Positions 25,088 to 43,603 of a stretch of DNA of 64,000 bases are shown piece after piece; the stretch's first letter is position 1, and each line of letters begins with the position of its first letter. This DNA is from an uncultured Myxococcales bacterium (lineage in GTDB: Bacteria > Myxococcota_A > UBA9042 > CAIXZC01), in NCBI GenBank assembly GCA_964626565.1, contig CAZVFX010000002.1, forward strand, positions 4,822-68,821, written 5' to 3'. The position numbers and the translations under genes were made by a program. The notes below the pieces were generated by a model. That model saw only the letters and a program-made list of their open reading frames with translations, did no database searches and was not told where the DNA came from.

Positions 25088-25318
25088 ATGAACATCCGAT
25101 TTTTAGGCCCCATAGAGGCGCCGCCCACAGACGTTGTGGAGAGCGTCGCCGGTTCGTTTGAAGGGGGTACCGTGAGGGACCTCCTCGGTAAGCTGGGCTT
25201 CACCGAACAGCAGGTGTGGTTTCTGTCGGTGCTGAAAGACCAGCAGCGCCTTTCACCCGAGGATGAACTTTCGCCCGATGACGAGGTATCCATCATGCTC
25301 CTGGTTGGGGGCGGATAG
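25088..25318 (+). CDS. MoaD/ThiS-family ubiquitin-like small protein (beta-grasp, C-terminal Gly-Gly).
   Basis: 76 aa. TVRDLLGKL...DDEVSIMLLVGGG* matches the MoaD/ThiS pattern (TV..L, DGDEV, C-terminal GG). RBS GGGGAGGA upstream. Confidence 0.55.
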   Translation: MNIRFLGPIEAPPTDVVESVAGSFEGGTVRDLLGKLGFTEQQVWFLSVLKDQQRLSPEDELSPDDEVSIMLLVGGG

Positions 25319-25327
25319 GAGGAAAGA

Positions 25328-27502
25328 ATGACCGGTCTTTTTCGCAAAACAGCGCTGGCCGTCGCAATGGTCCTGATCTGCTCCGTTCCGGCCCTCGCCT
25401 ATGAATACCGGGTGCCGATCCTCATTCAGGACGAGGACGACCTCAACGAGTTGTACTTCAGCAAGGATATCACCGAAGAGGAGCGCGACCGGCTGGTGAT
25501 CCTCTACCGGGACCCCCTCGATCCCAACACCGCAGACCGGGACGAACTGTACGACCTGCCCGGTCTCACCTACGCCATGGTGGACGCCATTATCGACCGC
25601 CGGGACGACAAGAACTTCACCCGTATTTCCCAACTGAAAAAGGTGCCCGGGATTACTCCGGAAATCTATACCCAGTTGACCTCGTTTATACGCATTGTCC
25701 CCAGAACGAAGAAAGGGAAGGGGGAAAAACTACACGGCAAGATCACCGTAAAAGCCATCGACCGCATTTCCGACAGCGACGACGATTATCCCGAGGGGTA
25801 CATCCGGGCCCAGGCCAAGAGCAAAGATCGAAAATACCAGTTCGGCGCCGCGGTAGTGGGCCTCAACTCCATTTGGCCCCCGACGTACAAGACTACGCCG
25901 AAGACTTATTGGAATTTCAGCCAGGACGGTGATCCAAAATATCTGGGCGACGGCGTCACTCCCGATTCCGATACCGCTGACCGGTACCTGCTCACCGATG
26001 GCGAGGCCATGCTTCCTTCCTGGCCCAAAGTGTACGCGATGGTGCAGTCGGGCAAAGTCCAGGCCATCGCAGGGAGCTACCGGGTGGGCTTCGGCCAGCG
26101 CATCGTGCTGGACAACAGCGGCCAGAGCAACCCCCACGGCTTCAAGCCGGACCTTGAAATCTATGAGGGCGAGAGCGGTTTCGGCCTCTCCAAGGGGTTC
26201 TTTGGCACGGCCGCGACCTACAACGACATGAAGGTCGGCAAGCTGGACATGGACGCCACCGCATTTTTCTCCTACTGGCGTTATGACCAGAACCAGTACC
26301 GGCTGAAGCACAAGGTGGAAGGGGTGGGCGGGGACGAACTGGAGAGTTATGCCGTGCTCACCTCCTACAAAACCCACCAGGGCGTCAAATACTACCGCAA
26401 ATTGAGTCACGTGACCCTCCCCCAGGCTTATTCAGAACTGATGGGCGGCGGCAACGTCACCTTGAACCTCGACTCCAAGTCCCACATCGGGCTCACCGGT
26501 TACGTGAGCAAAACCGGATTCTACCTGGACGATCCCGACACCGTCTTTGCCCGTCATGAGAAATTCCCCGAGCGGGAACTGTTCTACGCCGCGGGCGCCG
26601 ACTTCGCCTGGGCCTATCGGGATTTTCAGCTCTTCGGCGAAGCGGGCATGATGGACAACAGCTCCTATGCCGGCACCGTGCGGGGTATCGCTGAATTGGG
26701 AGACGTGATTCTGGAAACGTCGTATCGCTATCTTCCCTACGACTTCGACAATCCCCACTCCCGGGCGTATTCCATGAGCGATCAGTTCGAGGGAGACACC
26801 GACAAGGGTGAGCAGGGAGTCATGTTCACCGCCAAATACCGGGTGACCAAATGGCTGACGTTGAGGGTCGACGAAGACGTCTGGCAGGCCACCCGCTGGG
26901 CGGATGACGATGCGAAGGAGGAGTTCGGAGACAAGGAGAAACCGTGGCGTATGGAGACCTATCTAAGGGTTGAGACCAAGCCCACGTCCAAGCTTCGGAT
27001 CGGCACCTTTGTGCAGTTCAACGATAAGGACCTGTCAGAAAGCAGCCGGGACGAGAGCTACTCCGACACCTATGGTGCGGGCGAAAAATACCAGTGGGGC
27101 CTCCAACTTGCCAACCGCTTCAATAAGACCACCGCGCTGTGGGCATACTACAAGATCGGCTTCGAAGACGCCGCGCTCGGAGACGCCTACCAGAAGCGCC
27201 ACTATGGAACGTTGAAATTCACCACGCGGCCGCTGAAATTAATGGACTTCGCGATCCGGGCCAAATACCTCAAGGGTGAACTGGAAGAACTGCAGGGCTC
27301 CACCCGGGAGCACTTCATGGAAGGATACGTGCAGGTGGGCTTGAATTTCAACAAAGAGTGGAAGCTGGCGTTGCGAGGTATGCTGCGTCAGGACATCCTC
27401 GAGTCGGATCCCGAAACAGACGAGTCCCTCTCTTTCTCGGATGGTCTGAGCGAAGGTGACACCGAGATCTTCTGGAAAGCGATGCTGGACTACAAATTCT
27501 AA
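25328..27502 (+). CDS. Outer-membrane beta-barrel protein with N-terminal tandem helix-hairpin-helix (ComEA-like) motifs.
   Basis: Signal peptide MTGLFRKTALAVAMVLICSVPALA. Two HhH motifs LYDLPGLTYAMVDAIIDRR and LKKVPGITPEIYTQL. A long amphipathic beta-rich region ends in ...KAMLDYKF (C-terminal aromatic, OMP signature). Confidence 0.55.
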   Translation: MTGLFRKTALAVAMVLICSVPALAYEYRVPILIQDEDDLNELYFSKDITEEERDRLVILYRDPLDPNTADRDELYDLPGLTYAMVDAIIDRRDDKNFTRISQLKKVPGITPEIYTQLTSFIRIVPRTKKGKGEKLHGKITVKAIDRISDSDDDYPEGYIRAQAKSKDRKYQFGAAVVGLNSIWPPTYKTTPKTYWNFSQDGDPKYLGDGVTPDSDTADRYLLTDGEAMLPSWPKVYAMVQSGKVQAIAGSYRVGFGQRIVLDNSGQSNPHGFKPDLEIYEGESGFGLSKGFFGTAATYNDMKVGKLDMDATAFFSYWRYDQNQYRLKHKVEGVGGDELESYAVLTSYKTHQGVKYYRKLSHVTLPQAYSELMGGGNVTLNLDSKSHIGLTGYVSKTGFYLDDPDTVFARHEKFPERELFYAAGADFAWAYRDFQLFGEAGMMDNSSYAGTVRGIAELGDVILETSYRYLPYDFDNPHSRAYSMSDQFEGDTDKGEQGVMFTAKYRVTKWLTLRVDEDVWQATRWADDDAKEEFGDKEKPWRMETYLRVETKPTSKLRIGTFVQFNDKDLSESSRDESYSDTYGAGEKYQWGLQLANRFNKTTALWAYYKIGFEDAALGDAYQKRHYGTLKFTTRPLKLMDFAIRAKYLKGELEELQGSTREHFMEGYVQVGLNFNKEWKLALRGMLRQDILESDPETDESLSFSDGLSEGDTEIFWKAMLDYKF

Positions 27503-27505
27503 GCG

Positions 27506-29887
27506 TTGGGTTTTAGACAAACCACACTCCCGCTGCTGTTGGCCGCAGCGCTTGTCACAATCGCATGTGCACCTGAATCCAACTGCCGTCTTCCCTGCGA
27601 CAAGGCCCTCGACTGCCTCCTCGAGGCCGCGCGTCAGGATGGCCATGACATCGCGGCCGTCGAGAGCGAGCGTGACCGGCTGGTGAGCGGATGTAACGCG
27701 GCGTGCAGTCACCGCTGGTCCCGCCCCAACGAATATGGCGAGTGCCTCGGCGCAGCCACCTGCAGCGAAATCGAAGGCGGGGCCTGCGGTGTTGAAGCGC
27801 CCGACGGTGGTCCTCCCACCGCCCACCTGGACTACCTGCTGCCCGGCGATGAACCGATCAGGCTGACCCCCGATCCGGAGTGCCTGGCCATGGTGACCGG
27901 CAGTGACGAGCCGTGCCGGGACCTGGAAGGGGATTCCCGGGATGATTGTTTCCTGGCGGTAACCGTGAAGAGGTCCGTGCAGACGGGCGATGCTGCACTG
28001 TGCTCCCGGCTGTCCGCACCCGGGGACGCATTCTGCCGCGCGGTAGCGACGGGCAAGGGCTGCGGTGGTCTGCCCCCGCCCTTTGGTACGGCCTGCAGTC
28101 ACTTTCTCGAGGGGGAAGCGGAAGACGACATTTCCCGGCTGCTACTTGCACCGGTCCGTGACGACGAGGAGATGTGCCGCACCATCGGTGATACCACCGA
28201 CCAGCGCACTTGTCTCGCCCTGGTCCGCAACGACACCCGTTTCTGTCGGCAGACTCTCATAGTGGATCCCGCGGCGCTGGTCGCGTTCGGAAGGGGGCTG
28301 CGGGTGGAAGATCCCACCGGGCAGGGACCGGTGGTAGCGCCGGCAATTCTTGCCCGCGTGGCTCCAATACTCGGCTATCTGGCACCCCTCTTCTGGGTCC
28401 TGGCGCTGGTGTGGGCGGCCTTTGTGCTGTGGAACGCACGCGGTGAAAACCGACGGGTAATCATCACGCTGTCAGCAACCCTGGCCGTTTCCCTGGCCAT
28501 TCGCCTGCTACTGGTGCGCACCGGCCCGGTAAACTTCGTCGAGTACGAGCGGGTCTTTCTGCCGGCACCTGACGACATCGCCAGGTTCGCATACGCGGGC
28601 CAGGCCTACCTGCTAGGCCCCCTGTTTGCGCTTTTCGGGTCATCCTTCGACCTGGTCTTCGGCCTCAATGCACTTTTTCTACCCTTCCTTTGCCTGGGGG
28701 TGTGGTCTTTGTCGATGAAGGTGACCAAAGACAGTCGCGCTTCCCTGGCCGCAGTGCTGCTGGTGGGACTCAATCCGCTGATCTTGCGGCTGTCGGCTAG
28801 TGCCTCCGAGACTTTCGGATTCGCAGTACTGGCAGTTATCTTCATCGACCTTCTGGCGGATGCGCTACACGATTGGCGACGGGGTTGGGCGCTGGCGCTG
28901 CTGACGCCCTTCGTCCTCATCTATCGCCCCGAGGGCCTGTTGCTCGCGGCTCCGGCCCTGGTGATTTTTGCAATGGCCCGGCTGAAGGACTCGCCACGTC
29001 GACCCGGTCTCACCGAGACCGCTCCGCTGTTGCTGGTCGCACTGGAGTTCGCGCTGTTCGCCTACCTCTTCTCCGGGCTGTCGTTTCCGCGCATAAGCTG
29101 GGCGTTGCTCGCCGGAAACACAGGCGCATTCCTGCTGGAAATGGTGGATCCGCGCTACCATTCGCCGTTGATGACCGTCACTCTTTTCGCTCCGCTGGTC
29201 CTGGCTTTCACAAATTCCAGGCGCCTGTCCCGCGCCGTCGGATTGGCGGTCGCCGCACCCGTCCTATGCCTGTTGCTGGTCGCGGTCTGGTGCATCCAGG
29301 GACCGGAGGACAATCTTGCCCTGGGTTCGGCCCGCTACCTGGTCATGGCTGAACCGTGGCTGGCGGTTTGCAGTGCAATTCTCTTTGCCGGTTTGAGCAG
29401 CCGGGGCCGGCATTGGGCCGGCGTCGTCGTCGGACTCTTCGTGCTCCTCACCGTACCATCCTTCGGGCTGATCACCGAAGAGAGCAACATGCAAAAGGAG
29501 TTCTACTTCATGGTCGACGCCGCCGGGGAACTACCTGAACATGCGCTGGTAGTGCTGCCTTCCGCGGAAGAGAACAACCAGGAATTTGCTCCTGAAAACG
29601 GGATGCTGGCAGTGCTTTCCATGGGTGGCAAAGACGTCTCCTGGAAGCGCCTTGACGAGGTGCTCGAGGGCTCACTTCCCCAACTCTTCTATCTGTTCTC
29701 CGGGTTCTATGAAGCCGGCCGCGGACTTGCCGTATTGAAAGGACGGTGCGATCTGACCCCGGTGCTCGAACGCACCGTTGAAAGTGTCCCCGACGTCGCC
29801 TGGTACGCCTCATTCCCCGCAGGGGAAGAGGTGGGGCTGGCGCTATATCGCGTGGCTTGCGGTACCGGCGCCTCACAGCTACAATAG
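27506..29887 (+). CDS. GT-C superfamily glycosyltransferase (PMT_2/ArnT/GT39-like polytopic domain) with an N-terminal Cys-rich extracytoplasmic domain.
   Basis: Signal peptide, then ~270 aa with 20 Cys, then more than 11 predicted TM helices. Typical of polyprenol-phosphate-sugar-dependent GT-C enzymes. Translationally coupled to the downstream GT2 (stop 29887, start 29892). Confidence 0.5.
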   Translation: MGFRQTTLPLLLAAALVTIACAPESNCRLPCDKALDCLLEAARQDGHDIAAVESERDRLVSGCNAACSHRWSRPNEYGECLGAATCSEIEGGACGVEAPDGGPPTAHLDYLLPGDEPIRLTPDPECLAMVTGSDEPCRDLEGDSRDDCFLAVTVKRSVQTGDAALCSRLSAPGDAFCRAVATGKGCGGLPPPFGTACSHFLEGEAEDDISRLLLAPVRDDEEMCRTIGDTTDQRTCLALVRNDTRFCRQTLIVDPAALVAFGRGLRVEDPTGQGPVVAPAILARVAPILGYLAPLFWVLALVWAAFVLWNARGENRRVIITLSATLAVSLAIRLLLVRTGPVNFVEYERVFLPAPDDIARFAYAGQAYLLGPLFALFGSSFDLVFGLNALFLPFLCLGVWSLSMKVTKDSRASLAAVLLVGLNPLILRLSASASETFGFAVLAVIFIDLLADALHDWRRGWALALLTPFVLIYRPEGLLLAAPALVIFAMARLKDSPRRPGLTETAPLLLVALEFALFAYLFSGLSFPRISWALLAGNTGAFLLEMVDPRYHSPLMTVTLFAPLVLAFTNSRRLSRAVGLAVAAPVLCLLLVAVWCIQGPEDNLALGSARYLVMAEPWLAVCSAILFAGLSSRGRHWAGVVVGLFVLLTVPSFGLITEESNMQKEFYFMVDAAGELPEHALVVLPSAEENNQEFAPENGMLAVLSMGGKDVSWKRLDEVLEGSLPQLFYLFSGFYEAGRGLAVLKGRCDLTPVLERTVESVPDVAWYASFPAGEEVGLALYRVACGTGASQLQ

Positions 29888-29891
29888 CGCC

Positions 29892-30638
29892 ATGTTTAGA
29901 GTCGGCATCATAATGCCTGCCTATTGCGCCGCCTATACGGTGGTCGACACGATTCTGCGCATCCCCGTGGACGCGCTCAGACGGGTCGGCTGCCTTCCGG
30001 AACTCTACGTCGTTGACGACGGCAGCAGCGACGGCACCGGCGCGGCAATACGGGCTGCGGCCCCGTTTCCCGACCTGGCCGCCACCTTGCTCACCCATCC
30101 TCGAAACCTGGGCTACGGCGCTGCCCAGAAGACCGGCCTGGCGGCCTCTGTTCGGGGCGGAAACCAGGCCCACGTAATCCTCCATTCCGACGGTCAGTAT
30201 GCCCCCGAAGAGCTTCCGGACATGCTGGAGCCGATTCGGTCCGCCCAGGCCGACGTGGTCATCGGGTCGAAGTTCAAAAAGGGTCGCGTCCTCGGCCAGG
30301 GAATGCCGTTGGTTCGCATGCTGGGTATCCGCGCGGCCGACCGTCTTGAAAACCGGCTGCTGGGTGTTGGCGGACTGGAGTTTCATTCGGGCTACATGGC
30401 GTACTCGGCCAAAGCGTTGGCGACGGTTCCGTTCGAGACCCTCACCGACCGCTTCCACTTTGACGGCGAGATGGTGCTGTCCGCGGCCAAGACGGGGCTG
30501 ACCACCGAACTGGCACCCATCTCCACGAACTATGCTCGGGGCACATCGAGCCTCCACCCGCTGCCCTACCTCAAGGAGCTGGTTTCAACCGTGCTAAAAT
30601 ACCAGGGCGGACGCTACTGGTTTCAAAAGGAAGGATGA
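29892..30638 (+). CDS. GT2-family polyprenol-phosphate sugar synthase (Dpm1/Ppm1/ArnC/GtrB-like).
   Basis: ATG at 29892, five nt after the upstream stop. GIIMPAYCAAYTV...VVDDGSSDGT...VVIGSKF...RMLG. About 250 aa catalytic domain without a C-terminal TM. Confidence 0.7.
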   Translation: MFRVGIIMPAYCAAYTVVDTILRIPVDALRRVGCLPELYVVDDGSSDGTGAAIRAAAPFPDLAATLLTHPRNLGYGAAQKTGLAASVRGGNQAHVILHSDGQYAPEELPDMLEPIRSAQADVVIGSKFKKGRVLGQGMPLVRMLGIRAADRLENRLLGVGGLEFHSGYMAYSAKALATVPFETLTDRFHFDGEMVLSAAKTGLTTELAPISTNYARGTSSLHPLPYLKELVSTVLKYQGGRYWFQKEG

Positions 30639-32221
30639 TGGGGGAAGTGGAGCCACGCCGGGGATTGCACCCCGAGAAGTCCCGGAAAAAGGTGTCGGGA
30701 CTTTTTGCCGGCCTGCTGTTGCTGGCGCTGGCGGTGGGGTACGTCACCGACTACGTGCGAGTGCATCGGGCAGACGCGGGAGATGTGCAGACGTTGCAGA
30801 TCCTCACCGAGGACTATCACTGGGTTTTTGTGGTCCGGCCGGACAGGGTCGACAACGAGATATGGGAGTTCTTCAAGGCGGGCGCGATCATGTACCCGAT
30901 CATGCCCGTCGTTTATGCCCCTCACATGGCGGCTCAACTGCTCCTGCCCGGGACAGGAGACGCCCAGTTTGTTTTTACCCTCTCTTTGTACCTGACACTA
31001 CTTCTACTGACGGGGCTGTTCTTTGTGGGGTTGAAGAAGGGGCTCTCGGCAACTGCCTCCTTCCTGATAACCGCGGCGGTGCTGCTCAATCCGTTTCTCC
31101 TCTACCTGCTTGCGTCCGCCCCGGTAATTCCTTCCGCCGCGCTGCTGCCTCTGGCCTACCTCGCCTATATTTCCCGGCGCAGCTGGGCGGCTTTTACCCT
31201 GTTCTTCGTGATCGCGCTATCCTATCGCTTCGGCTCCTTCTTCCTGTTTCTCCTGGTACTGAGCGAAGGGCCCCCTTCCAAAGATGAGGATACAGGCCTC
31301 TTCAGGTATTCACTCATCGCTCTGGGCGCACTTATGTGCATTCAGACTGCGTCGCAATTCCTGCTCGTGCAGTTCAACGACTATGTGAAAGAGCTCGAGG
31401 GGCTGCGGGTGGGGTACACTTTCGGCATGTTGAAACGGTTTATCACCGCGCCGCTGTCGCCGGATGTCCTCTTTCGTGAGTTTCAGGTGGTTGCCTGGTT
31501 GGCCGCGGGCGGCTTCGCCCTGTTCCTGCGCCCCACGACTCGGTGGCGCCTGGTAGGAGCGGCGGGAGTGCTGGGCTATCTCGCCCTGGTCACCGGCCTG
31601 TTTTCCATGAGCGTGGTGCTGGCCACCGGTGTCGCGGGCGTCGCCCTGGTCACGGGAGCAAGTCATCTTCGCCGGTGGCGAACGGGCGTCGCAGCCGCCG
31701 GCGTCGCCGGCGCCATCGCGGTCGCCTTCCTCGCTCCGGTCTTTCCCGCTCCTGCGACCCTCTCCGACAAACCCCCTCTCTTGGAGGAAGGTGTGAAAGT
31801 CACAACCCTCGCCGGTTTTTTCAGCCAGGCTTTGGCTTTGCCCGACGACCCGCATCTCGACCGGGCTGCAACGGTGCTGGAGGGATTGAGTCAATCCGGG
31901 CGCTGTTTCGTCGACCCGTTGCTGGTGGCAACGGTTCCTGCATCGGCTTGCGCCGAGGTGGTTCCGCTGGGCAAGACTGCCCCGGACGACGGGGTTGTCG
32001 TCGAGCGCGTCATTTATGATGAATCCCCGGGGGCCGAGGCTTTCCGCAGCGCGCTGGTCAGAGACCTGAGGGTGAGCGAGCAGTCGCTTGCACGCTTCGA
32101 TGCCACAGTCAATGAGGTCAGGAATTCCGGGGAGTTCGGGGTGTCAGTGACCAGGGATGGGTTGCTGATTCTTGACCGATTGCCTCAGGGGCAGCACTCC
32201 GGCGGCGGCGGCTCGCCGTAG
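30635..32221 (+). CDS. Polytopic integral membrane protein (more than 10 TM), possibly a second GT-C-type enzyme or flippase-like partner of the upstream GT pair.
   Basis: The start ATG overlaps the GT2 stop (ATGATG). Continuous hydrophobic helices followed by a C-terminal soluble ~120-aa domain. No family recognised. Confidence 0.45.
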   Translation: MMGEVEPRRGLHPEKSRKKVSGLFAGLLLLALAVGYVTDYVRVHRADAGDVQTLQILTEDYHWVFVVRPDRVDNEIWEFFKAGAIMYPIMPVVYAPHMAAQLLLPGTGDAQFVFTLSLYLTLLLLTGLFFVGLKKGLSATASFLITAAVLLNPFLLYLLASAPVIPSAALLPLAYLAYISRRSWAAFTLFFVIALSYRFGSFFLFLLVLSEGPPSKDEDTGLFRYSLIALGALMCIQTASQFLLVQFNDYVKELEGLRVGYTFGMLKRFITAPLSPDVLFREFQVVAWLAAGGFALFLRPTTRWRLVGAAGVLGYLALVTGLFSMSVVLATGVAGVALVTGASHLRRWRTGVAAAGVAGAIAVAFLAPVFPAPATLSDKPPLLEEGVKVTTLAGFFSQALALPDDPHLDRAATVLEGLSQSGRCFVDPLLVATVPASACAEVVPLGKTAPDDGVVVERVIYDESPGAEAFRSALVRDLRVSEQSLARFDATVNEVRNSGEFGVSVTRDGLLILDRLPQGQHSGGGGSP

Positions 32222-33915
32222 TCGCATTCGCAACACGCGTCTGCACACGGATCCGGCGCACAACATTCCTCCCATACTCCTTCCGGAAGAATGCCGTACT
32301 CGCATTCGCAGCACACCGCTTCACAGTCGATGGCGTCCTTTTCGTGGCCATCGGCCACCACGTCCACCGGGATACCGTATTCCGGCTGCACCGCAATGTC
32401 CGGCTCAACGGTGTCCTGGGGCTTTATGTCCACGGGCACGCCGTAGTCCGGCTGCACCGAGTTGTCCGGCTCCACCACGTCCACCGGAATGCCGTATTCG
32501 GGCTGCACCGCAATGTCCGGTTCCTTGTTGTCCTGGACCTTGATGTCCACCGGAATGCCGTAGTCCGGTTGCACCGTCATGTCCGGCTCAACGCCGTATT
32601 CCGGGCAGCAGAAGTCCGGCTCTTTCACGTCGGGCTCCGGAGCCTGGTCTACGCTGACAACATCGACTCCGTATTCGGGAGTGGCTGACGCATCCTTCTT
32701 TTCGTCATCGCTGCCAAGCTGGCAGCTTGCAACGCCCAAAGACAACATCAACGCGGCCGCGGCCGAAGCCGCGGTCTTCGCCAACTCACCACGCTGGTCA
32801 CCACCCTCCAGGTGGACCAACCGGTGGTAGCAGTACGGGTCTTCCTTGAGCGCGTTGGTGAACGCCGAGGCGACGCACTTCGCGCCGCCGCGGCAGATGC
32901 CGCGATGCCTGCACTTGCCGCAGTACCCTTCCAACGTGTCGGTGGAAAAGTCACGGTTGTACGCGAAAGCGCCGGGGCGGTGCCACAGTTCGGGTAACGG
33001 AACCTCCCGCAGGTTGCCTTCTACGAAGGGGTCGTTTTCACCTTGCCACGCCTGCATGGACAGGCACCCTTTTACGCCGCCGTCCGCCTCGATGCCGATG
33101 GCCTGCATGCCGGCCTGGCACCCCTGCCAGCTCTCCTTCCTTCCCCGCCAGCCCCTTCCCCTGAGGATCCGGTCGTGGGGGCCGTAATAGCCGATGGAAT
33201 CGCCGACGTTCAGTTGGATCTCGCCCTGCTTCTTCAGCCGCGCCAGCAGCGGAATAAGTTCCAGGAACTGTTCCGGGCGAATTACCCAGTCTTCGTGGTC
33301 CGAAAGATTGCCCATGGGCTTGGCGAGCTGCAGCCGCCACATGGAAGCGCCGGCATCGATCGCCACCTGCCGTACCTCTTCCAGGCGGGAGAAATTGAGT
33401 TGGTTGACCGTAGTCATGATCCCGACCCGCATTCCTGCGCGGTTGAAATCAGCTACCGACTCCAGCGAGCGGGCGAATGCATCGGCGCCGCGGATGGTGT
33501 TGTGGATCTCCTCCGGTCCGTCGATGCTTATCCCGACGTTGCTCATGCCCGCGTCCGCGGCTCGGCGTGCGACTTCGCGGCCCTTGTCCCGGCTGGAGTA
33601 CACCCCGTTGGTCACCATGTTGCAGTAGATATCTTTCCTGGTAATAGCTCTGGCGATGGCGTCCCAGTCTTTGCGCAACGTGGGCTCGCCGCCCGAAAGG
33701 GTAATGAGCTCGCACCCCAACTCGGCCAGGTGGTCCACTACGCCGAAGCACTCGGCGGTGGTCAACTCGTTTTCACGCACCGTCCCTGCCCGGGACCCGC
33801 AATGCCCGCAATTCAGGTTGCAGGCCAGCGTCAACTCCCATACGCAGTTGCGCGGCTTCCAGTTTTTTTCACCTACCCGCTTGCGGGCGTCTTCAAACGA
33901 CATGGTATTGTTCAT
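32185..33915 (-). CDS. Radical SAM/SPASM-domain enzyme fused in-frame to a TM/lipobox-like segment, six 19-aa tandem repeats (VQPEYGIPVDVVEPDxx) and a C-terminal 46-aa tail with 12 Cys.
   Basis: CNLNCGHC (CX3CX2C) at aa 32-39. SPASM cysteines CGKCRHRGICRGGAKC. Hydrophobic segment KTAASAAAALMLSLGVASC. Repeats encoded by ~57-bp DNA repeats at 32340-32650. Tail CEAVCCECEYGILPEGVWEECCAPDPCADACCECDYGEPPPPECCP. Confidence 0.7.
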   Translation of the reverse strand: MNNTMSFEDARKRVGEKNWKPRNCVWELTLACNLNCGHCGSRAGTVRENELTTAECFGVVDHLAELGCELITLSGGEPTLRKDWDAIARAITRKDIYCNMVTNGVYSSRDKGREVARRAADAGMSNVGISIDGPEEIHNTIRGADAFARSLESVADFNRAGMRVGIMTTVNQLNFSRLEEVRQVAIDAGASMWRLQLAKPMGNLSDHEDWVIRPEQFLELIPLLARLKKQGEIQLNVGDSIGYYGPHDRILRGRGWRGRKESWQGCQAGMQAIGIEADGGVKGCLSMQAWQGENDPFVEGNLREVPLPELWHRPGAFAYNRDFSTDTLEGYCGKCRHRGICRGGAKCVASAFTNALKEDPYCYHRLVHLEGGDQRGELAKTAASAAAALMLSLGVASCQLGSDDEKKDASATPEYGVDVVSVDQAPEPDVKEPDFCCPEYGVEPDMTVQPDYGIPVDIKVQDNKEPDIAVQPEYGIPVDVVEPDNSVQPDYGVPVDIKPQDTVEPDIAVQPEYGIPVDVVADGHEKDAIDCEAVCCECEYGILPEGVWEECCAPDPCADACCECDYGEPPPPECCP

Positions 33916-34029: not shown

Positions 34030-34232
34030 ATCCATGATTCGTGATTCTTCGGGTGCCCCTCGGAGGGGCGAATAGGGAAACAGGTGAAGAACCTGTGCGG
34101 ACCCGCCACTGTAATCGGGTGCCCTGTTCCATGAGGCCACTCGGGTCGATGAAAGACCCGGGGAAGGCGGAACAAGGCCGGCGTCGTTGTTGACGACTCC
34201 ACCCCGTAAGCCAGGAAACCTGCCCGAGTAAA
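34030..34232 (+). ncRNA. Cobalamin (adenosylcobalamin) riboswitch.
   Basis: Conserved core elements GGTGCC...AATAGGGAAACAGGTGAAGAACCTG..GCGGACCCGCCACTGTAA (B12 box GCCACTG) and the 3' element AAGCCAGGAAACCTGCC. A downstream T-tract (GCGGCGTTTTTT) may form the expression platform. Located 5' of a TonB-dependent receptor gene. Confidence 0.8.
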
Positions 34233-34262
34233 AATTGCGGCGTTTTTTCGCACCTCGCGGAT

Positions 34263-36200
34263 ATGGGTGGCAACGCTATGCCGACACGGGCACTCACAAT
34301 TCTTACCCCTCTCATTCTCGGCGCCACCATCTTTTGCATCGGCCCCCGAAGTGCGTCTGCCGACGACATAGTATTGCCCCCCGTCACCGTCAAAACCGAG
34401 CGTCCCCCGCTGCTGGAATCCTACTCAACAGTAACAGTGATCGAGGTGGCCGGTGAGGACACCGGCGGCAAGACCGTGGCCGACTTTCTCGAGACCGCGC
34501 CCGGTGTACAGATCATCCGCTCCGGCTCTCTGGGCCAGCGGGAGACCGTCACTATTCGAGGCAGCGACAGCAAGCAGGTGCTCGTCCTCGTCGAAGGTTT
34601 TTACACCAATGACCCCCGGGCCGGCGGTACGGATCTCTCTCAGATCCCACTGGACTCGGTGGAATCCATCGAAATATATCGTGGTGCGAGAGGTGCACTC
34701 GCAGGTGCGAGCGCCATGGGCGGTGTGGTGGTGGTGCGCTTGAAGAAGGGTAGGAAGAAGGTGAGCGGGACCAGACGCCTGACGCTGGGCGGCTATGGTG
34801 GAGAAGGCTACGAATCGGTTTCCGGCGCCTGGTCGGTGCAAGGGGGCGGGGCTTATTTCTCGTACGCTCACGCCCAGGCGCAGGGGGAGTACCCCTTTGT
34901 CGACCGCAACGGCAACGACCGCGTCCGGGAGAACAACGCGTCGGTCTCAGACCTCCTTACCGTCCGGTACGGCACCCGGGTGGCGCCGGCCACCCGTCTG
35001 GACCTGGTGAGCACCATGGCGCTCACCTGGCGGGAGTCGCCGGGGCTGGACCAACAGCCCGCGGATACGGCTGCAGAAGAGCAAAGCAACTCGTTTCTGG
35101 TCGGGCTAAAATTGCTCGCGCTGAAATTCCCGGTGGAAGGGGCTTCCCTGGGAGGAAAACTGGCGTGGAACATGTGGCGCTGGACTTTTAACGAACCCCT
35201 TCCATACATGCCCCCGCCGTCGGATACCCTCAGTCTCAACCACCGCTTCGACGGCTCCCTTGAAACCCGGGTGAAGCTGCCCTGGGACCTGGCGGTGACC
35301 GCCTCTGTCTCGGGGGCCCGGGAGATGGCCGATATCACCCGCCGGTACGGCAAGAACGTTGACAAGGCCCGCACCCTCGGTGACCAGGCTGTGGCGCTGC
35401 TGGTGGGAGACCAGTCGGACCGGGCGCGCCTGACGCTAAGACTCCGCCACGCCATGTCCAGCGTGGACGCGTACGAAAACGCCTGGGCCCCGGCCCTCGA
35501 GGGAGAGGTCGACCTTTTCGGCGGCCTGACTTTCGGTGCGTCGGCCGGTCGTTCCTACCGGTACCCGACATTTGATGAGATGTATTTCGAAGCGTCCGGA
35601 ATCCGCGGAAATCCCGACTTGAAACCAGAGGACATGTGGGGCGGCGATGTCAGCCTCAAGTATGAGGCCGGGCCGCTATCTGCCCTGGCGTCCGTCTTCT
35701 ATCATGACATAGCGAAGACCATCCTCTTTCTGCCCGTCACCCCTTACCTCATCGAGGCCGGCAACAACGAGCACGGCGTGACGGCAAAGGGCGCTGAAGC
35801 AGAGGTCTCGGCCCGGCTTTGGAAGTTCGAGCTTCTGGGCTCGTTTACCTGGGTCGATGCGGTGGAAGACGAGCTGGACCGGCAGTTGCCCCTCAGGTCC
35901 CCCTATTCGGGCAACGTGCAACTCCGCTTCGCGCACGGCCGCGTCGCGGCCAGGCTGACCGGCAACTACCGTTCGGCATTCTACTTCGACCGGTTCAACA
36001 ACCTGGAGGAAGAGGGCAGGGTGCTCTGGGGCGCCGGTGGTTCGGTCAACCTGGGCCAGGGATTCAGGCTTATGCTCGAGGCGAGGAACATCACTAACAA
36101 GTTGGACGCAGTAGACAATTTGCAGCATCCGTTACCGGGACTTTCCTGGCTGGCGACTATGGAAAAGAGATGGACAGGAGGAAGTGATGAAGAAAAGTAA
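34263..36200 (+). CDS. btuB: TonB-dependent outer-membrane receptor, probable cobalamin transporter BtuB.
   Basis: Signal peptide. Plug domain (TVIEVAGED...ETVTIRGSDSKQVLVLVEGFYTND..IPLDSVESIEIYRGARGALAG). C-terminal beta-barrel. Sits directly downstream of the B12 riboswitch. Confidence 0.75.
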   Translation: MGGNAMPTRALTILTPLILGATIFCIGPRSASADDIVLPPVTVKTERPPLLESYSTVTVIEVAGEDTGGKTVADFLETAPGVQIIRSGSLGQRETVTIRGSDSKQVLVLVEGFYTNDPRAGGTDLSQIPLDSVESIEIYRGARGALAGASAMGGVVVVRLKKGRKKVSGTRRLTLGGYGGEGYESVSGAWSVQGGGAYFSYAHAQAQGEYPFVDRNGNDRVRENNASVSDLLTVRYGTRVAPATRLDLVSTMALTWRESPGLDQQPADTAAEEQSNSFLVGLKLLALKFPVEGASLGGKLAWNMWRWTFNEPLPYMPPPSDTLSLNHRFDGSLETRVKLPWDLAVTASVSGAREMADITRRYGKNVDKARTLGDQAVALLVGDQSDRARLTLRLRHAMSSVDAYENAWAPALEGEVDLFGGLTFGASAGRSYRYPTFDEMYFEASGIRGNPDLKPEDMWGGDVSLKYEAGPLSALASVFYHDIAKTILFLPVTPYLIEAGNNEHGVTAKGAEAEVSARLWKFELLGSFTWVDAVEDELDRQLPLRSPYSGNVQLRFAHGRVAARLTGNYRSAFYFDRFNNLEEEGRVLWGAGGSVNLGQGFRLMLEARNITNKLDAVDNLQHPLPGLSWLATMEKRWTGGSDEEK

Positions 36201-41207: not shown

Positions 41208-42407
41208 ATGGATTTTGTGCTGGCCTGCAACTGGGATGAACGGCTGATAGACGTCGCCCGGAAGCACGGCGTGACAGAGTTGTTCGGAAAACTCCACCAC
41301 GATCTGGTGGGCGGTGGACGGGCCAGTTTTCTGCTCCCGAAGTTGACTCGAAAGGAAGCGGAAAGATATATTAGCAATGTCCACGATGCGGGCATCCAGT
41401 TCAACTATCTCTTGAACGGCACCTGCCTCGGCAATCGGGAGCTCACCCGGGCCGGTCAGAAGGAACTGGACAGCCTGGTCGGTTGGGCCTGGGACGCGGG
41501 CGTTCGCTGGTTCACCGTCTCCATCCCCTACCTCGCCCGCAAAATCAAGCGCCGCTACCCCGACGCGCACATTGTGGTCTCCATGATGGCCGGCGTCGAG
41601 TCGGTTGAAACCGCGAAATACTGGGAAGAAGCCGGCGCCGAAGTCCTCATCCTCTTCGATTCCAAAGATTTCAACCTGCTCCGAGCGCTGAAAAAGCATA
41701 CGGGGCTGAAGCTGGAAGTCGCGGGCAACCTGTCCTGCATGAACAGGTGCCACCAGACCTTCTACCACGGCAACGTCGCCTCCCATGGCTCCAACGCCTC
41801 GGGCACGGGGATGTTCACTCTGCCCGTGTGCGAGACCAGGTGCACCTACATGAAGGTGAAAGAGCCGAGGCGCATCATTGCGGGGCAGTGGGTGAGGCCC
41901 GACGACCTTCACATCTACGACGAGTTGGGTGTCGACCGGTTGAAACTGCTGGACCGCATTTCACCCACGGAGCAGCTCGAGAAGATCCTCACGGCCTATC
42001 GGGAAGGCGTGTACGAGGGCAATCTCGCCGAACTCATCCCCGGCTACCGCCAGGACCGGGTAGACGCCTACCTCAACGCAAGCCGACTCCCCCGCATGGT
42101 GCAGGCGTTTCTGCGCCCCGAGAAATACAATGTGTTCAAGGCGCTGCCATTTGCCCGGCGCAACCGCCAGCCGACCTTTACTATCGACAACCGCGCCCTG
42201 GACGGTTTTCTGGATGGATTCAGCAAGCGCGATTGCCGCAGTCTTTCTTGCGCCGAGTGTGGGTGGTGCGACCGCTACGCGGAAAAGGCGATAAGTTTCG
42301 ACCCCGAGGAGCGAAAGCGATACCTCACTGACGTCGAGAATAATCTCGAAGAGCTTGAAAGCGGCAGCTTCTTCTCGTATCTTCCCGCCAACAGGAAGGA
42401 AGAATGA
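41208..42407 (+). CDS. Putative Fe-S protein, peptidase-U32-like family (UbiU/UbiV/RlhA-like TIM-barrel), paralog A.
   Basis: N-terminal (VLACNWDERLIDVARKHGVTELFGKL) resembles the U32 N-terminus (LxxPxxxxExLxxxxxxGADxVYxG). Two Cx3C motifs (LSCMNRC, VCETRC; compare UbiV CETCC). C-terminal Cx4Cx2Cx2C cluster. 399 aa. Confidence 0.4.
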   Translation: MDFVLACNWDERLIDVARKHGVTELFGKLHHDLVGGGRASFLLPKLTRKEAERYISNVHDAGIQFNYLLNGTCLGNRELTRAGQKELDSLVGWAWDAGVRWFTVSIPYLARKIKRRYPDAHIVVSMMAGVESVETAKYWEEAGAEVLILFDSKDFNLLRALKKHTGLKLEVAGNLSCMNRCHQTFYHGNVASHGSNASGTGMFTLPVCETRCTYMKVKEPRRIIAGQWVRPDDLHIYDELGVDRLKLLDRISPTEQLEKILTAYREGVYEGNLAELIPGYRQDRVDAYLNASRLPRMVQAFLRPEKYNVFKALPFARRNRQPTFTIDNRALDGFLDGFSKRDCRSLSCAECGWCDRYAEKAISFDPEERKRYLTDVENNLEELESGSFFSYLPANRKEE

Positions 42408-43603
42408 AGCTGTCGGCCCCAACCAATTTTGACGATGCGCTAATCGAGCCTCTGGCCGCGGCCGGCGTTCACGAAATCTACGGCAAGCTTACCGCGGACG
42501 CGGTGGGCGGTGGCCGCACATCCCACGTGCTGCCGCCGGTGGACAAGAAACGGCTCAACGAGCACGCAACCCTGGCTCGCAAGGCAGGCATCCAGTTCAA
42601 CTATCTGCTCAACGCCGCGGCCATGGGCGGCATGGAAACCACCGCGGGCGGCTACAAGAGCATTCGCCGGATCCTCGACATGGTGAGTGAACTGGGCCTC
42701 AACTCAATTACCGTGTCCAACCCCCTGCTGCTGCAGATTTCCAAACGCCACAACCCCGGCCTCGAGGTGAAAGTGTCCGCGTTCGCCAACGTGGTCAACG
42801 TGTTCCAAGCCCGCCAGTGGGCGGATATGGGCGCCGACGTCATCACCGCTTCCCCCGTTGCGCTGAACCGGGAGTTGAAGACTCTCGAAGAGATGGCCGG
42901 AACTGTGAACGCGGAAATTCAGGTGATCCTCAACAACAACTGCATTCAGTCGTGTGCTTTCTACAACACCCACGCCAACCTCCACTCCCACTCGTCGCAG
43001 AAAGGGCACTGGTCGAAGGGGTATATGATCGACTACTGCCTGCTCAACTGCAGGACGGCAAGGCTTACTGATCCCGCCCTATATATCCGGGGTGACTGGA
43101 TTCGGCCCGAGGATATGGACCTCTACGAATCGCTGGGCATGGAGTATTTCAAGGTGGTGAACCGCTCCAATCCTACCGACGTAATCATCCGCCGGGTGCA
43201 GGCTTATGCTGCCCGTCGATTCGACGGCAATCTTCTGGAGCTGGTGGAGCACGCGCAGGACCACCGGCAGAAAGGGGCGGAGAGCGCCGGGGCAAAGCTG
43301 CGCATGGCGAGGACGTTTGTGAGACCTACCCTGGTCAATCCCCTGCGGCTGAAAGAGTTCGGCGACCTGGCTTTTCCACTGGAGCCGGTGGTGGAGATAG
43401 ACAACCGGGCGCTGGATGGTTTTATCGATTACTTCAAGGAAAACAGTTGCGCTTCAAAGGGGTGCGACGTGTGCCGCTACTGCGAAGAGACCGCGGCCAA
43501 AGTGATCAAGATAAACGGGGTCGGTCTTGACGAGTACCGCCAGCGCTACAAGCAGGCGATGGATCGCTTCCTGGACGGCTACTATTTCAATTGGACAACC
43601 TGA
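42404..43603 (+). CDS. Putative Fe-S protein, peptidase-U32-like family, paralog B (translationally coupled to paralog A).
   Basis: KLSAPTNFDDALIEPLAAAGVHEIYGK. Cx3C motifs CIQSC and CLLNC. C-terminal CASKGCDVCRYC. 399 aa. Start overlaps the stop of paralog A (ATGA). Confidence 0.4.
   Translation: MKLSAPTNFDDALIEPLAAAGVHEIYGKLTADAVGGGRTSHVLPPVDKKRLNEHATLARKAGIQFNYLLNAAAMGGMETTAGGYKSIRRILDMVSELGLNSITVSNPLLLQISKRHNPGLEVKVSAFANVVNVFQARQWADMGADVITASPVALNRELKTLEEMAGTVNAEIQVILNNNCIQSCAFYNTHANLHSHSSQKGHWSKGYMIDYCLLNCRTARLTDPALYIRGDWIRPEDMDLYESLGMEYFKVVNRSNPTDVIIRRVQAYAARRFDGNLLELVEHAQDHRQKGAESAGAKLRMARTFVRPTLVNPLRLKEFGDLAFPLEPVVEIDNRALDGFIDYFKENSCASKGCDVCRYCEETAAKVIKINGVGLDEYRQRYKQAMDRFLDGYYFNWTT

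Follow-up and report, generated by a model that had tools for sequence, protein, structure and literature searches.

Five co-directional open reading frames (ORFs), g1 to g5, occupy positions 25088-32221 of the forward strand in a 64,000-nucleotide stretch of DNA (the window) from an uncultured Myxococcales bacterium; identical DNA is found on several marine metagenome contigs, one of them a 198-kb JGI contig. In order, the genes encode a small ThiS/MoaD-like protein, a predicted outer-membrane β-barrel with a helix-hairpin-helix (HhH) domain, a Cys-rich polytopic protein resembling GT-C glycosyltransferases, a soluble GT2 glycosyltransferase and a second polytopic protein; a giant HEAT-repeat protein is encoded upstream on the same strand (Table 1). 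A re-check of the ORFs returned the coordinates given in the first-pass annotation of this DNA together with its intergenic gaps of 9, 3, 4 and -4 nt, the last of which is an ATGA overlap between g4 and g5. In all five genes the G+C content at third codon positions (GC3, 0.70-0.77) stands against a much lower value at second positions (GC2, 0.38-0.48), a coding signature. Shine-Dalgarno-like sequences precede g1, g2 and g5; none is present before g3 or g4, which start 3-4 nt past the preceding stop, an arrangement consistent with coupled translation. A consensus scan for promoters and terminators found nothing exceeding the expectation from shuffled sequence, so co-transcription is inferred from the spacing; the five genes are real and most likely share one transcript.

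Table 1. Genes and domains of the five-gene locus and its immediate neighbors (window positions; CRD, Cys-rich domain; OM, outer membrane)
Feature	Position	Strand	Evidence or relation
HEAT-repeat giant, 1391 aa	20836..25011	+	upstream partner, 76 nt before g1
g1, ThiS/MoaD/TtuB-like, 76 aa	25088..25318	+	ThiS PF02597
g2, predicted OM barrel with HhH, 724 aa	25328..27502	+	HHH_3, period-2 hydrophobicity
HhH domain (HHH_3, ComEA-like) of g2, presumed periplasmic	25517..25693	+	PF12836
g3, Cys-rich and polytopic, GT-C-like, 793 aa	27506..29887	+	family consensus vs PMT_2
CRD of g3	27566..28315	+	homology to free-standing secreted protein
g4, soluble GT2, 248 aa from ATG	29892..30638	+	PF00535
g5, polytopic, unclassified family, 528 aa	30635..32221	+	topology prediction
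Radical SAM/SPASM gene, convergent boundary	32185..33915	-	overlaps g5 3' end by 37 nt

The two genes that open the locus pair a secreted giant with a small, apparently cytoplasmic protein. The HEAT giant combines a signal peptide and HEAT_2 repeats (Pfam E=7e-17) with a hydrophobic C-terminal region of ~830 aa. This region, 19% Gly and 3% Trp with few classical transmembrane (TM) helices, matches no Pfam family, and single-sequence searches with it against Pfam, NCBIfam and PDB were empty. The product of g1 exceeds the ThiS threshold (PF02597) marginally, at 22.9 bits against a cut-off of 22.5; ThiS is nonetheless matched by seven of seven members of its family, and the best PDB matches of the family profile are the sulfur carrier TtuB (E=0.022) and SAMP2. 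Residues G74-G76 and a C-terminal VGGG are invariant in the family alignment (51-62% identity), and g1 itself ends in LLVGGG. It thus has the C-terminal Gly-Gly of a ThiS-family β-grasp protein, on a ThiS match that is itself marginal, and its initial description as a ThiS/MoaD-like protein ending in GGG holds. No signal peptide is visible in the translation, and we assign the protein to the cytoplasm.

The signal peptide of g2 (aa 1-24) is followed, directly after the predicted cleavage site, by a conserved acidic motif, AYEYRVPIxxxDEDD, and then by an HHH_3 domain at aa 64-122 (PF12836; E=4.5e-12, 46.3 bits against a 27-bit cut-off). In the PDB, the family profile matches ComEA (8dss, 6e-10; also 2duy and 8dfk) and EEPD1 (9yi2, 1e-12), as well as Tex. 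The remaining ~590 aa carry the marks of an outer-membrane barrel: amphipathic strands behind a signal peptide, no TM helices, no Cys in the mature part, and a C-terminal YKF with a terminal Phe. Period-2 hydrophobicity is found in 56 windows across the family, compared to 15.3+/-7.3 in shuffles, and outlines ~20 candidate strands, making the assignment to the outer-membrane β-barrels a well-supported prediction; the barrel region matches no Pfam, NCBIfam or PDB family. Of the HhH-bearing outer-membrane barrel proposed initially, the HhH part is therefore evident in HHH_3 and ComEA (8dss) matches, while the barrel is not directly visible and belongs to no known family. Judged by its sequence, g2 carries a ComEA-type domain but is not ComEA. 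Its HHH_3 domain aligns with ComEA DNA-binding domains (8dss, 2duy and 8dfk), whereas ComEA is a small soluble or inner-membrane-anchored protein and the domain in g2 is fused to a barrel; both g2 hairpins (LPGLT and VPGIT) deviate from the canonical GIG, the score against the ComEA equivalog TIGR01259 (24.1 bits) falls far under its cut-off of 152, and competence genes are not nearby. Homologues of g2 comprise 24 proteins, with 31 loci in reference genomes, and every genome among them that carries a taxonomic name belongs to Myxococcota.

The third gene is the most unusual of the five. It starts at TTG and encodes 793 aa; some public gene calls place the start 11 codons further in, giving 782 aa and what would be a shortened signal peptide. 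A signal- or lipoprotein-type N terminus leads into a Cys-rich domain (CRD, aa ~21-270), followed by 10-12 TM helices (aa ~275-656) and an acidic C-terminal domain (aa 657-793); 19 of the 25 Cys residues lie within aa 21-247. A word-indexed search yielded three homologues only. An exhaustive scan with HMMER, covering 1.84 billion cluster representatives, yielded 19 relatives, all at E<=2e-17, with nothing between that value and 1e-3, and thus delineates a small, sharply isolated family, most members of which are full length and have the Cys-rich N-terminal domain. A metagenome scan with an eight-sequence g3 alignment returned two loci only. Single members of the family show sub-threshold similarity to PMT_2 (18.3 bits, profile positions 9-154 of 160) and STT3. 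A majority consensus built over the TM and C-terminal region, in contrast, matches PMT_2 at E=4.6e-9 (37.1 bits, cut-off 26.1) across profile positions 9-151 of 160, and the next matches on the same segment, STT3 and PMT, are both GT-C families; reversed and block-shuffled versions of the consensus gave no match at E<=10. The positive-inside rule predicts a periplasmic location for the conserved polar motifs (GPxNFVEYER...DD, RPEG and QGxEGNxxFGSxRY) and for the acidic C-terminal domain, and the additional N-terminal helix would place the CRD in the periplasm as well.

On these features we consider g3 a probable, highly divergent GT-C enzyme. It shares with the PMT_2-type enzymes (PF13231; ArnT and bacterial PMT-like proteins) the 37-bit consensus match, the 10-12 TM helices, an acidic motif (NFVEYER...DD) in the first periplasmic loop and a C-terminal domain predicted to be periplasmic, but differs from them in that g3 itself scores nothing, has an extra N-terminal TM helix and a 250-aa Cys-rich domain, and belongs to an isolated family. 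PMT_2 is a family that we take to cover ArnT-type enzymes as well. No NCBIfam family, any ArnT model included, matches g3 at E<=0.1. PMT (PF02366) is reached by the consensus only, below threshold (E=0.022, 14.8 bits against 22.7), and no MIR domain was matched; we therefore reject g3 as a PMT. Single-sequence searches of Pfam, NCBIfam and PDB with the CRD or the C-terminal domain alone were empty. The initial proposal of a GT-C enzyme with an extra Cys-rich periplasmic domain is accordingly supported for the domain, with its 19 Cys, and visible in its GT-C half through the consensus only. Of the profile matches that had been anticipated for the locus, PF00535 was found in g4 and PF12836 in g2, and PF13231 (PMT_2) reached its cut-off only with the g3 consensus.

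The assignment of g4 is more straightforward. It matches PF00535 (GT2) at E=3e-17, and its top NCBIfam models, PpgS (3.7e-19), AglJ, a Dol-P-hexose transferase and ArnC, all describe polyprenyl-phosphate (Pol-P)-sugar synthases, although the scores of 26-69 bits compare to equivalog cut-offs of 325-529. The sole PDB matches at E<=1e-3 are DPMS (5mlz) and ArnC (9bhc and 8vxh). g4 is thus likely to fall within the Pol-P-sugar synthase class; neither a TM segment nor a membrane anchor is predicted. In g5, a basic N terminus and TM1 precede a 74-aa acidic first loop, ~8-9 more TM helices and an acidic C-terminal domain of 158 aa, a layout that is GT-C-like overall. It has only four homologues, all at least 69% identical. 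A weak colinear hhalign match links g5 to the PMT_2-like region of the g3 family (32.5 over 122 columns; reversed and shuffled controls, 20.8-26.4); it outscores the controls without being compelling, and we treat g5 as a g3 paralogue as a hint only. In a relative whose g2 is 59% identical (L012), a gene convergent on the barrel gene (L012:5934-6401, minus strand) ends in a domain resembling the g5 C terminus (profile E=4.6e-12); the contig ends there.

The distribution of these genes among relatives, which fall into three sets by g2 identity (closest, 88%; middle, 40-60%, about seven loci; distant, 23-33%), separates them into two groups. In the middle set, the order HEAT giant/g1/g2 recurs, with the HEAT giant homologue directly upstream of the g1 homologue (L007, L008, L012, L016, L017, L020 and L021). 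A secreted Cys-rich protein of 358-390 aa follows g2 in five of these loci (L007, L008, L016, L017 and L020) and is itself followed, where the contig is long enough, by mreBCD-pbp2-rodA in L007 and on the P0015 contig and by at least mreB in L008, L016, L017 and L020. Locus L011 retains g2, the Cys-rich protein and mreBCD-pbp2-rodA without the HEAT giant and g1, both of which are also missing from L015. In none of the about seven middle-set loci does the trio g3-g4-g5 adjoin g2. It does so only in the L013/L014 relatives: in L013, g2 is 88% and g3 72% identical to the window proteins, and L014 shows the trio alone. The g3 C terminus, g4, g5 and the convergent radical SAM gene recur in L053/L054 (g5, 69% identical). 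Conversely, g3-family members at 31-38% identity lie in unrelated contexts with no g2, g4 or g5 nearby, either beside an FHA/sigma-54 activator (L046-L049) or downstream of a MoxR-DUF58-TgpA cluster and a Cys-rich Dicty_CTDC giant (L052). mreBCD-pbp2-rodA was not found in the 64-kb window; its presence in relatives indicates that the locus was rearranged in this lineage.

Since the trio is restricted to the closest relatives whereas g1-g2 are syntenic more widely, the five-gene unit is lineage specific and composite: as read from gene order, it is a local joining of two modules, not one conserved system. The first-pass annotation had treated the locus as a single system and had named synteny across relatives as a check. 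The outcome is split, in that g1 and g2 travel together but not with the trio, which is next to g2 only where g2 is 88% identical, and a single conserved system is not supported. The findings named as refuting the proposal did not materialize: g3 is not an ArnT, no lipid-A genes lie nearby, and g1-g2 are syntenic in relatives.

The two modules are linked by the CRD. In related genomes, the barrel gene is followed by a gene for a free-standing secreted protein of 358-390 aa, to which the CRD of g3 is homologous: hhalign of the g3 CRD against the alignment of the free-standing protein gave a probability of 92% (E=6.5e-7, 159 columns), and reciprocal HMMER searches of 6,378 ORFs recovered the relationship at E=1e-6 to 9e-13, whereas the reversed database gave no match. 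Thus, by homology, the position after the barrel is still held by a CRD in this lineage, now on a GT-C-like enzyme. We rejected a recent fusion between a TM protein and the Cys-rich gene of the locus as the origin of g3, since the CRD is already present in family members of 31-38% identity found in other contexts. Cys-rich proteins also accompany the g3 family in other settings: a 525-aa CRD-family protein (E=3e-15) is encoded divergently beside a g3-family gene at L048:3679-5256 (minus strand), and a 1127-aa Dicty_CTDC repeat protein is encoded beside another at L052:6497-9880 (plus strand).

More distant homologues of g2 (23-33% identity), from Nannocystaceae, Enhygromyxa salina SWB005 and SWB007, Nannocystaceae ST9, Kofleriaceae and others, place the barrel in a very different company. 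Of the distant loci, 18 contain a gene for an SNase (PF00565) that carries a lipoprotein-type signal; in ~14 of the 18 this gene directly adjoins the matched barrel region or is no more than ~0.5 kb upstream of it. A protein of ~930 aa with LTD domains usually precedes the SNase; in a few loci these genes lie downstream of the barrel. The resulting cassette of LTD-repeat protein, SNase lipoprotein and HhH barrel is seen in L026-L045, for example at L034:6586-12361 (Enhygromyxa salina SWB007). In L009, L010 and L022, a PLDc_2 (Nuc-type) gene replaces the SNase. The appearance of two unrelated nuclease families in the same position beside a ComEA-type HhH domain points to nucleic-acid handling at the outer membrane. 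The nuclease context is a strong argument, by association, that the barrel family handles extracellular nucleic acid, and we infer that, at the outer membrane, the g2 family may bind or import such nucleic acid, whole or in fragments. In the window clade, g1 and the HEAT giant are found where the nuclease and LTD genes sit elsewhere.

We posit, at a probability of about 0.55, that the locus is a lineage-specific operon in which a conserved envelope module (HEAT giant, g1 and g2) is combined with a three-component-like glycosylation module private to the lineage (g3-g5), the two being linked by the shared CRD. Gene order, domain identities, family distributions and CRD homology, all directly observed, carry this proposal; the activities, topology and acceptor in what follows are our reconstruction. 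The HEAT giant, g1 and g2 would constitute an envelope module of a clade of uncultured marine Myxococcota, in which the ThiS-like g1 would occupy the nuclease position. [quoted passage not shown] The CRD would dock g3 to an envelope partner or acceptor shared with the barrel. GT-C enzymes with additional domains that bind the acceptor are known (PMC11127046).

Several observations weigh against this proposal. The assignment of g2 to the barrels comes from sequence periodicity. Its hairpins are degenerate in the window clade (LPGLT/VPGIT) and in the nuclease-linked homologues alike (LPNLT/AGVLS), and neither a nuclease nor an LTD gene is present beside the barrel in the window clade or anywhere in the 64 kb, so a role in DNA handling may not apply here. 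For g1, no E1-like adenylyltransferase (ThiF/MoeB/TtuC), sulfurtransferase or JAMM protease was found in the Pfam tables for window positions ~6,800-53,600; it resembles the ThiS, MoaD, TtuB and SAMP carriers in size, marginal ThiS match, C-terminal Gly-Gly(-Gly) and TtuB/SAMP2 PDB matches, but differs from them in having no such partners nearby and in sitting among genes for secreted and outer-membrane proteins. The g3 sequence gives no Pfam, NCBIfam or PDB match even at E=10, and thus none to PMT_2; an AlphaFold2 model built on a three-sequence alignment reached a pLDDT of 40, and Foldseek found no PDB match to it at E<=0.001, so the model is unusable and the GT-C status of g3 rests on the consensus-to-profile match. 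An adjacent GT2 gene is absent beside g3-family members elsewhere, and the g3-g4 partnership is accordingly seen only in this lineage. The weakest member of the trio is g5, which by sequence is unclassified: neither g5, even at E=10, nor its C-terminal domain matches anything in Pfam, NCBIfam or PDB, and its AlphaFold2 model, from four close homologues, reached a pLDDT of 42, again with no Foldseek match in the PDB at E<=0.001. No flippase of the GtrA, SMR, MATE or Wzx type is recognizable in g5 or elsewhere in the operon, and the large predicted periplasmic segments of g5 are atypical for GtrA, SMR and MATE flippases. The lipid-linked glycosylation trio of the first-pass annotation is therefore borne out by g4, which is Pol-P-sugar synthase-like, and through the consensus by g3, but not by g5, and the label rests on two of the three genes.

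Comparison with known systems sharpens both sides. Three-component periplasmic glycosylation systems consist of a Pol-P-sugar synthase, a flippase and a GT-C enzyme, as in GtrA/GtrB/Gtr*, ArnC/ArnT with ArnE/F, PpgS/Rv3779 and C. youngae ORF12-15 (PMC11127046). The window trio resembles them in the tight linkage of a small Pol-P-sugar-synthase-like GT2 (g4) to a polytopic GT-C-like protein with extra extracytoplasmic domains (g3). It differs in that g4 has no membrane anchor, g3 comes from a tiny family missed by curated models, no glycan backbone locus lies nearby and, in place of the flippase that defines the third component and that g3-g5 do not recognizably contain, there is a 528-aa unclassified polytopic protein (g5).

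Other arrangements of the same parts can be envisioned. That the five genes evolved as a functional unit, with the trio modifying the barrel, its cargo or a partner such as a surface polymer or secreted protein and the ThiS-like protein serving as a dedicated cytoplasmic cofactor, is unlikely. The spacing does suggest translational coupling, the g2-g3-g4-g5 order is kept in the closest relatives (L013), and the CRD of g3 is homologous to the protein after the barrel elsewhere. A GT2-like gene lies directly upstream of the PLD-barrel pair in the distant L022, and a 659-aa polytopic protein upstream of the PLD-barrel in L009 is weakly similar to the g3 TM region (24% over 385 aa). This last similarity, however, is unconfirmed (BLASTP E=1e-3; the family profile gave only a partial match, at E=0.002), and we do not count the L009 protein as a g3 relative. 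The five-gene arrangement is confined to loci in which g2 is at least 88% identical; about seven loci at 40-60% do not have the trio beside g2, and the g3 family at 31-38% identity occurs elsewhere without g2, g4 and g5.

The opposite view takes the trio for an ArnC/ArnT-like or Gtr-like module modifying lipid A, lipopolysaccharide (LPS) or exopolysaccharide (EPS), functionally unconnected to g1-g2 and placed beside them by rearrangement. It must contend with the CRD, whose homology to the barrel-adjacent protein argues that the juxtaposition of trio and barrel is not random. We hold this view to be improbable, even though ArnC is among the best g4 matches, PMT_2 presumably extends to ArnT-type enzymes, and the locus is rearranged relative to relatives, with the mreB cluster not found in the window. 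O antigen and other glycans are the usual targets of three-component systems (PMC11127046). However, the gene tables list no genes for the assembly of lipid A, LPS or EPS within the 64 kb, no NCBIfam model, any ArnT model included, matches g3 at E<=0.1, and in two other contexts the g3 family adjoins Cys-rich secreted proteins, not glycan loci. An ArnC/ArnT pathway for lipid A aminoarabinose, specifically, is rejected because no ArnT model matches g3 and no arn or lipid-A genes are listed in the window. The adjacency to Cys-rich proteins could instead mean that the trio carries out PMT-like O-glycosylation of secreted Cys-rich proteins, either of the CRD family or among the giant Cys-rich proteins of the window. 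The similarity of the g3 consensus to both PMT_2 and PMT, the Cys-rich neighbors in L048 and L052 and the CRD borne by g3 itself are all compatible with this idea. We nevertheless find it very doubtful: g3 has no MIR domains and is not a PMT-family member (PF02366 being matched by the consensus only), the acceptor motif is not known, and Cys-rich secreted proteins appear common in these genomes, so the adjacency may be due to chance.

A bolder proposal extends the reading of two joined modules to the barrel family as a whole. The g2 family could be a dedicated outer-membrane channel for extracellular nucleic acid, a ComEA-like ratchet fused to its own porin, working with a surface or periplasmic nuclease and an LTD protein; the window lineage would have re-equipped it with a β-grasp protein, a Cys-rich domain and a private GT-C module of a new family. 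We advance this as a tentative possibility, with the odds well against it. LTD domains occur in extracellular nucleases such as ExeM (PMC6085458) and in proposed DNA-degradation loci (PMC8289736). The distant g2 homologues resemble these loci in being encoded together with LTD proteins and secreted nucleases, but a dedicated HhH-bearing outer-membrane barrel was not found described for them, and the window clade has neither nuclease nor LTD protein. In a limited literature search, neither an outer-membrane barrel with an HhH domain nor an LTD-nuclease-barrel cassette turned out to have been described, which is absence of evidence.

Downstream, other genes bound the five-gene locus. The convergent gene that overlaps g5 encodes a radical SAM/SPASM protein whose best match is TIGR03913, "GDL-motif peptide-associated maturase" (287 bits, below cut-off). 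Its C-terminal ~190 aa contain a hydrophobic segment and tandem YG(I/V)PVD-type repeats (QP(E/D)YG(I/V)PVD), and the tail is CC-rich (CCECEYG, CCECDYG and ECCP). The position of the gene is kept in L053/L054, and we treat it as a boundary of the locus. A separate B12-uptake operon then bounds the locus: a cobalamin riboswitch (RF00174, 108 bits; 34034-34241, plus strand) lies upstream of a BtuB-like TonB-dependent receptor gene (34263-36200), which precedes an ORF of 437 aa and then genes of the Peripla_BP_2, FecCD and ABC ATPase types. Farther along, at ~40.2-41.0 kb (plus strand), a nucleotidyltransferase (NTP_transf_2/Polbeta, weak matches) and a HEPN protein form a pair of the toxin-antitoxin type, and two tandem Peptidase_U32 genes (41208-42407 and 42404-43603) come after it.

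For the five-gene claim itself, the main value of this analysis is corrective, and most of the interest lies in the barrel family and its nuclease context. For three of the families encoded here, namely the outer-membrane barrel with its HhH domain, the CRD proteins and the GT-C family of g3, there is no curated model. The last would form a separate branch of the GT-C enzymes, distinguished by a disulfide-rich domain, unusual for them, on the acceptor side. To our knowledge, the known mechanisms for capture or import of DNA at the outer membrane all depend on pilus and secretin machinery. A g2 channel, if real, would mean uptake of DNA or oligonucleotides across the outer membrane independently of type IV pili and secretins. 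The barrel family, which is Myxococcota-wide, occurs in the cultured Enhygromyxa salina and the isolate ST9 and is repeatedly encoded beside secreted nucleases of two unrelated families, offers a testable candidate for the capture or import of extracellular DNA.

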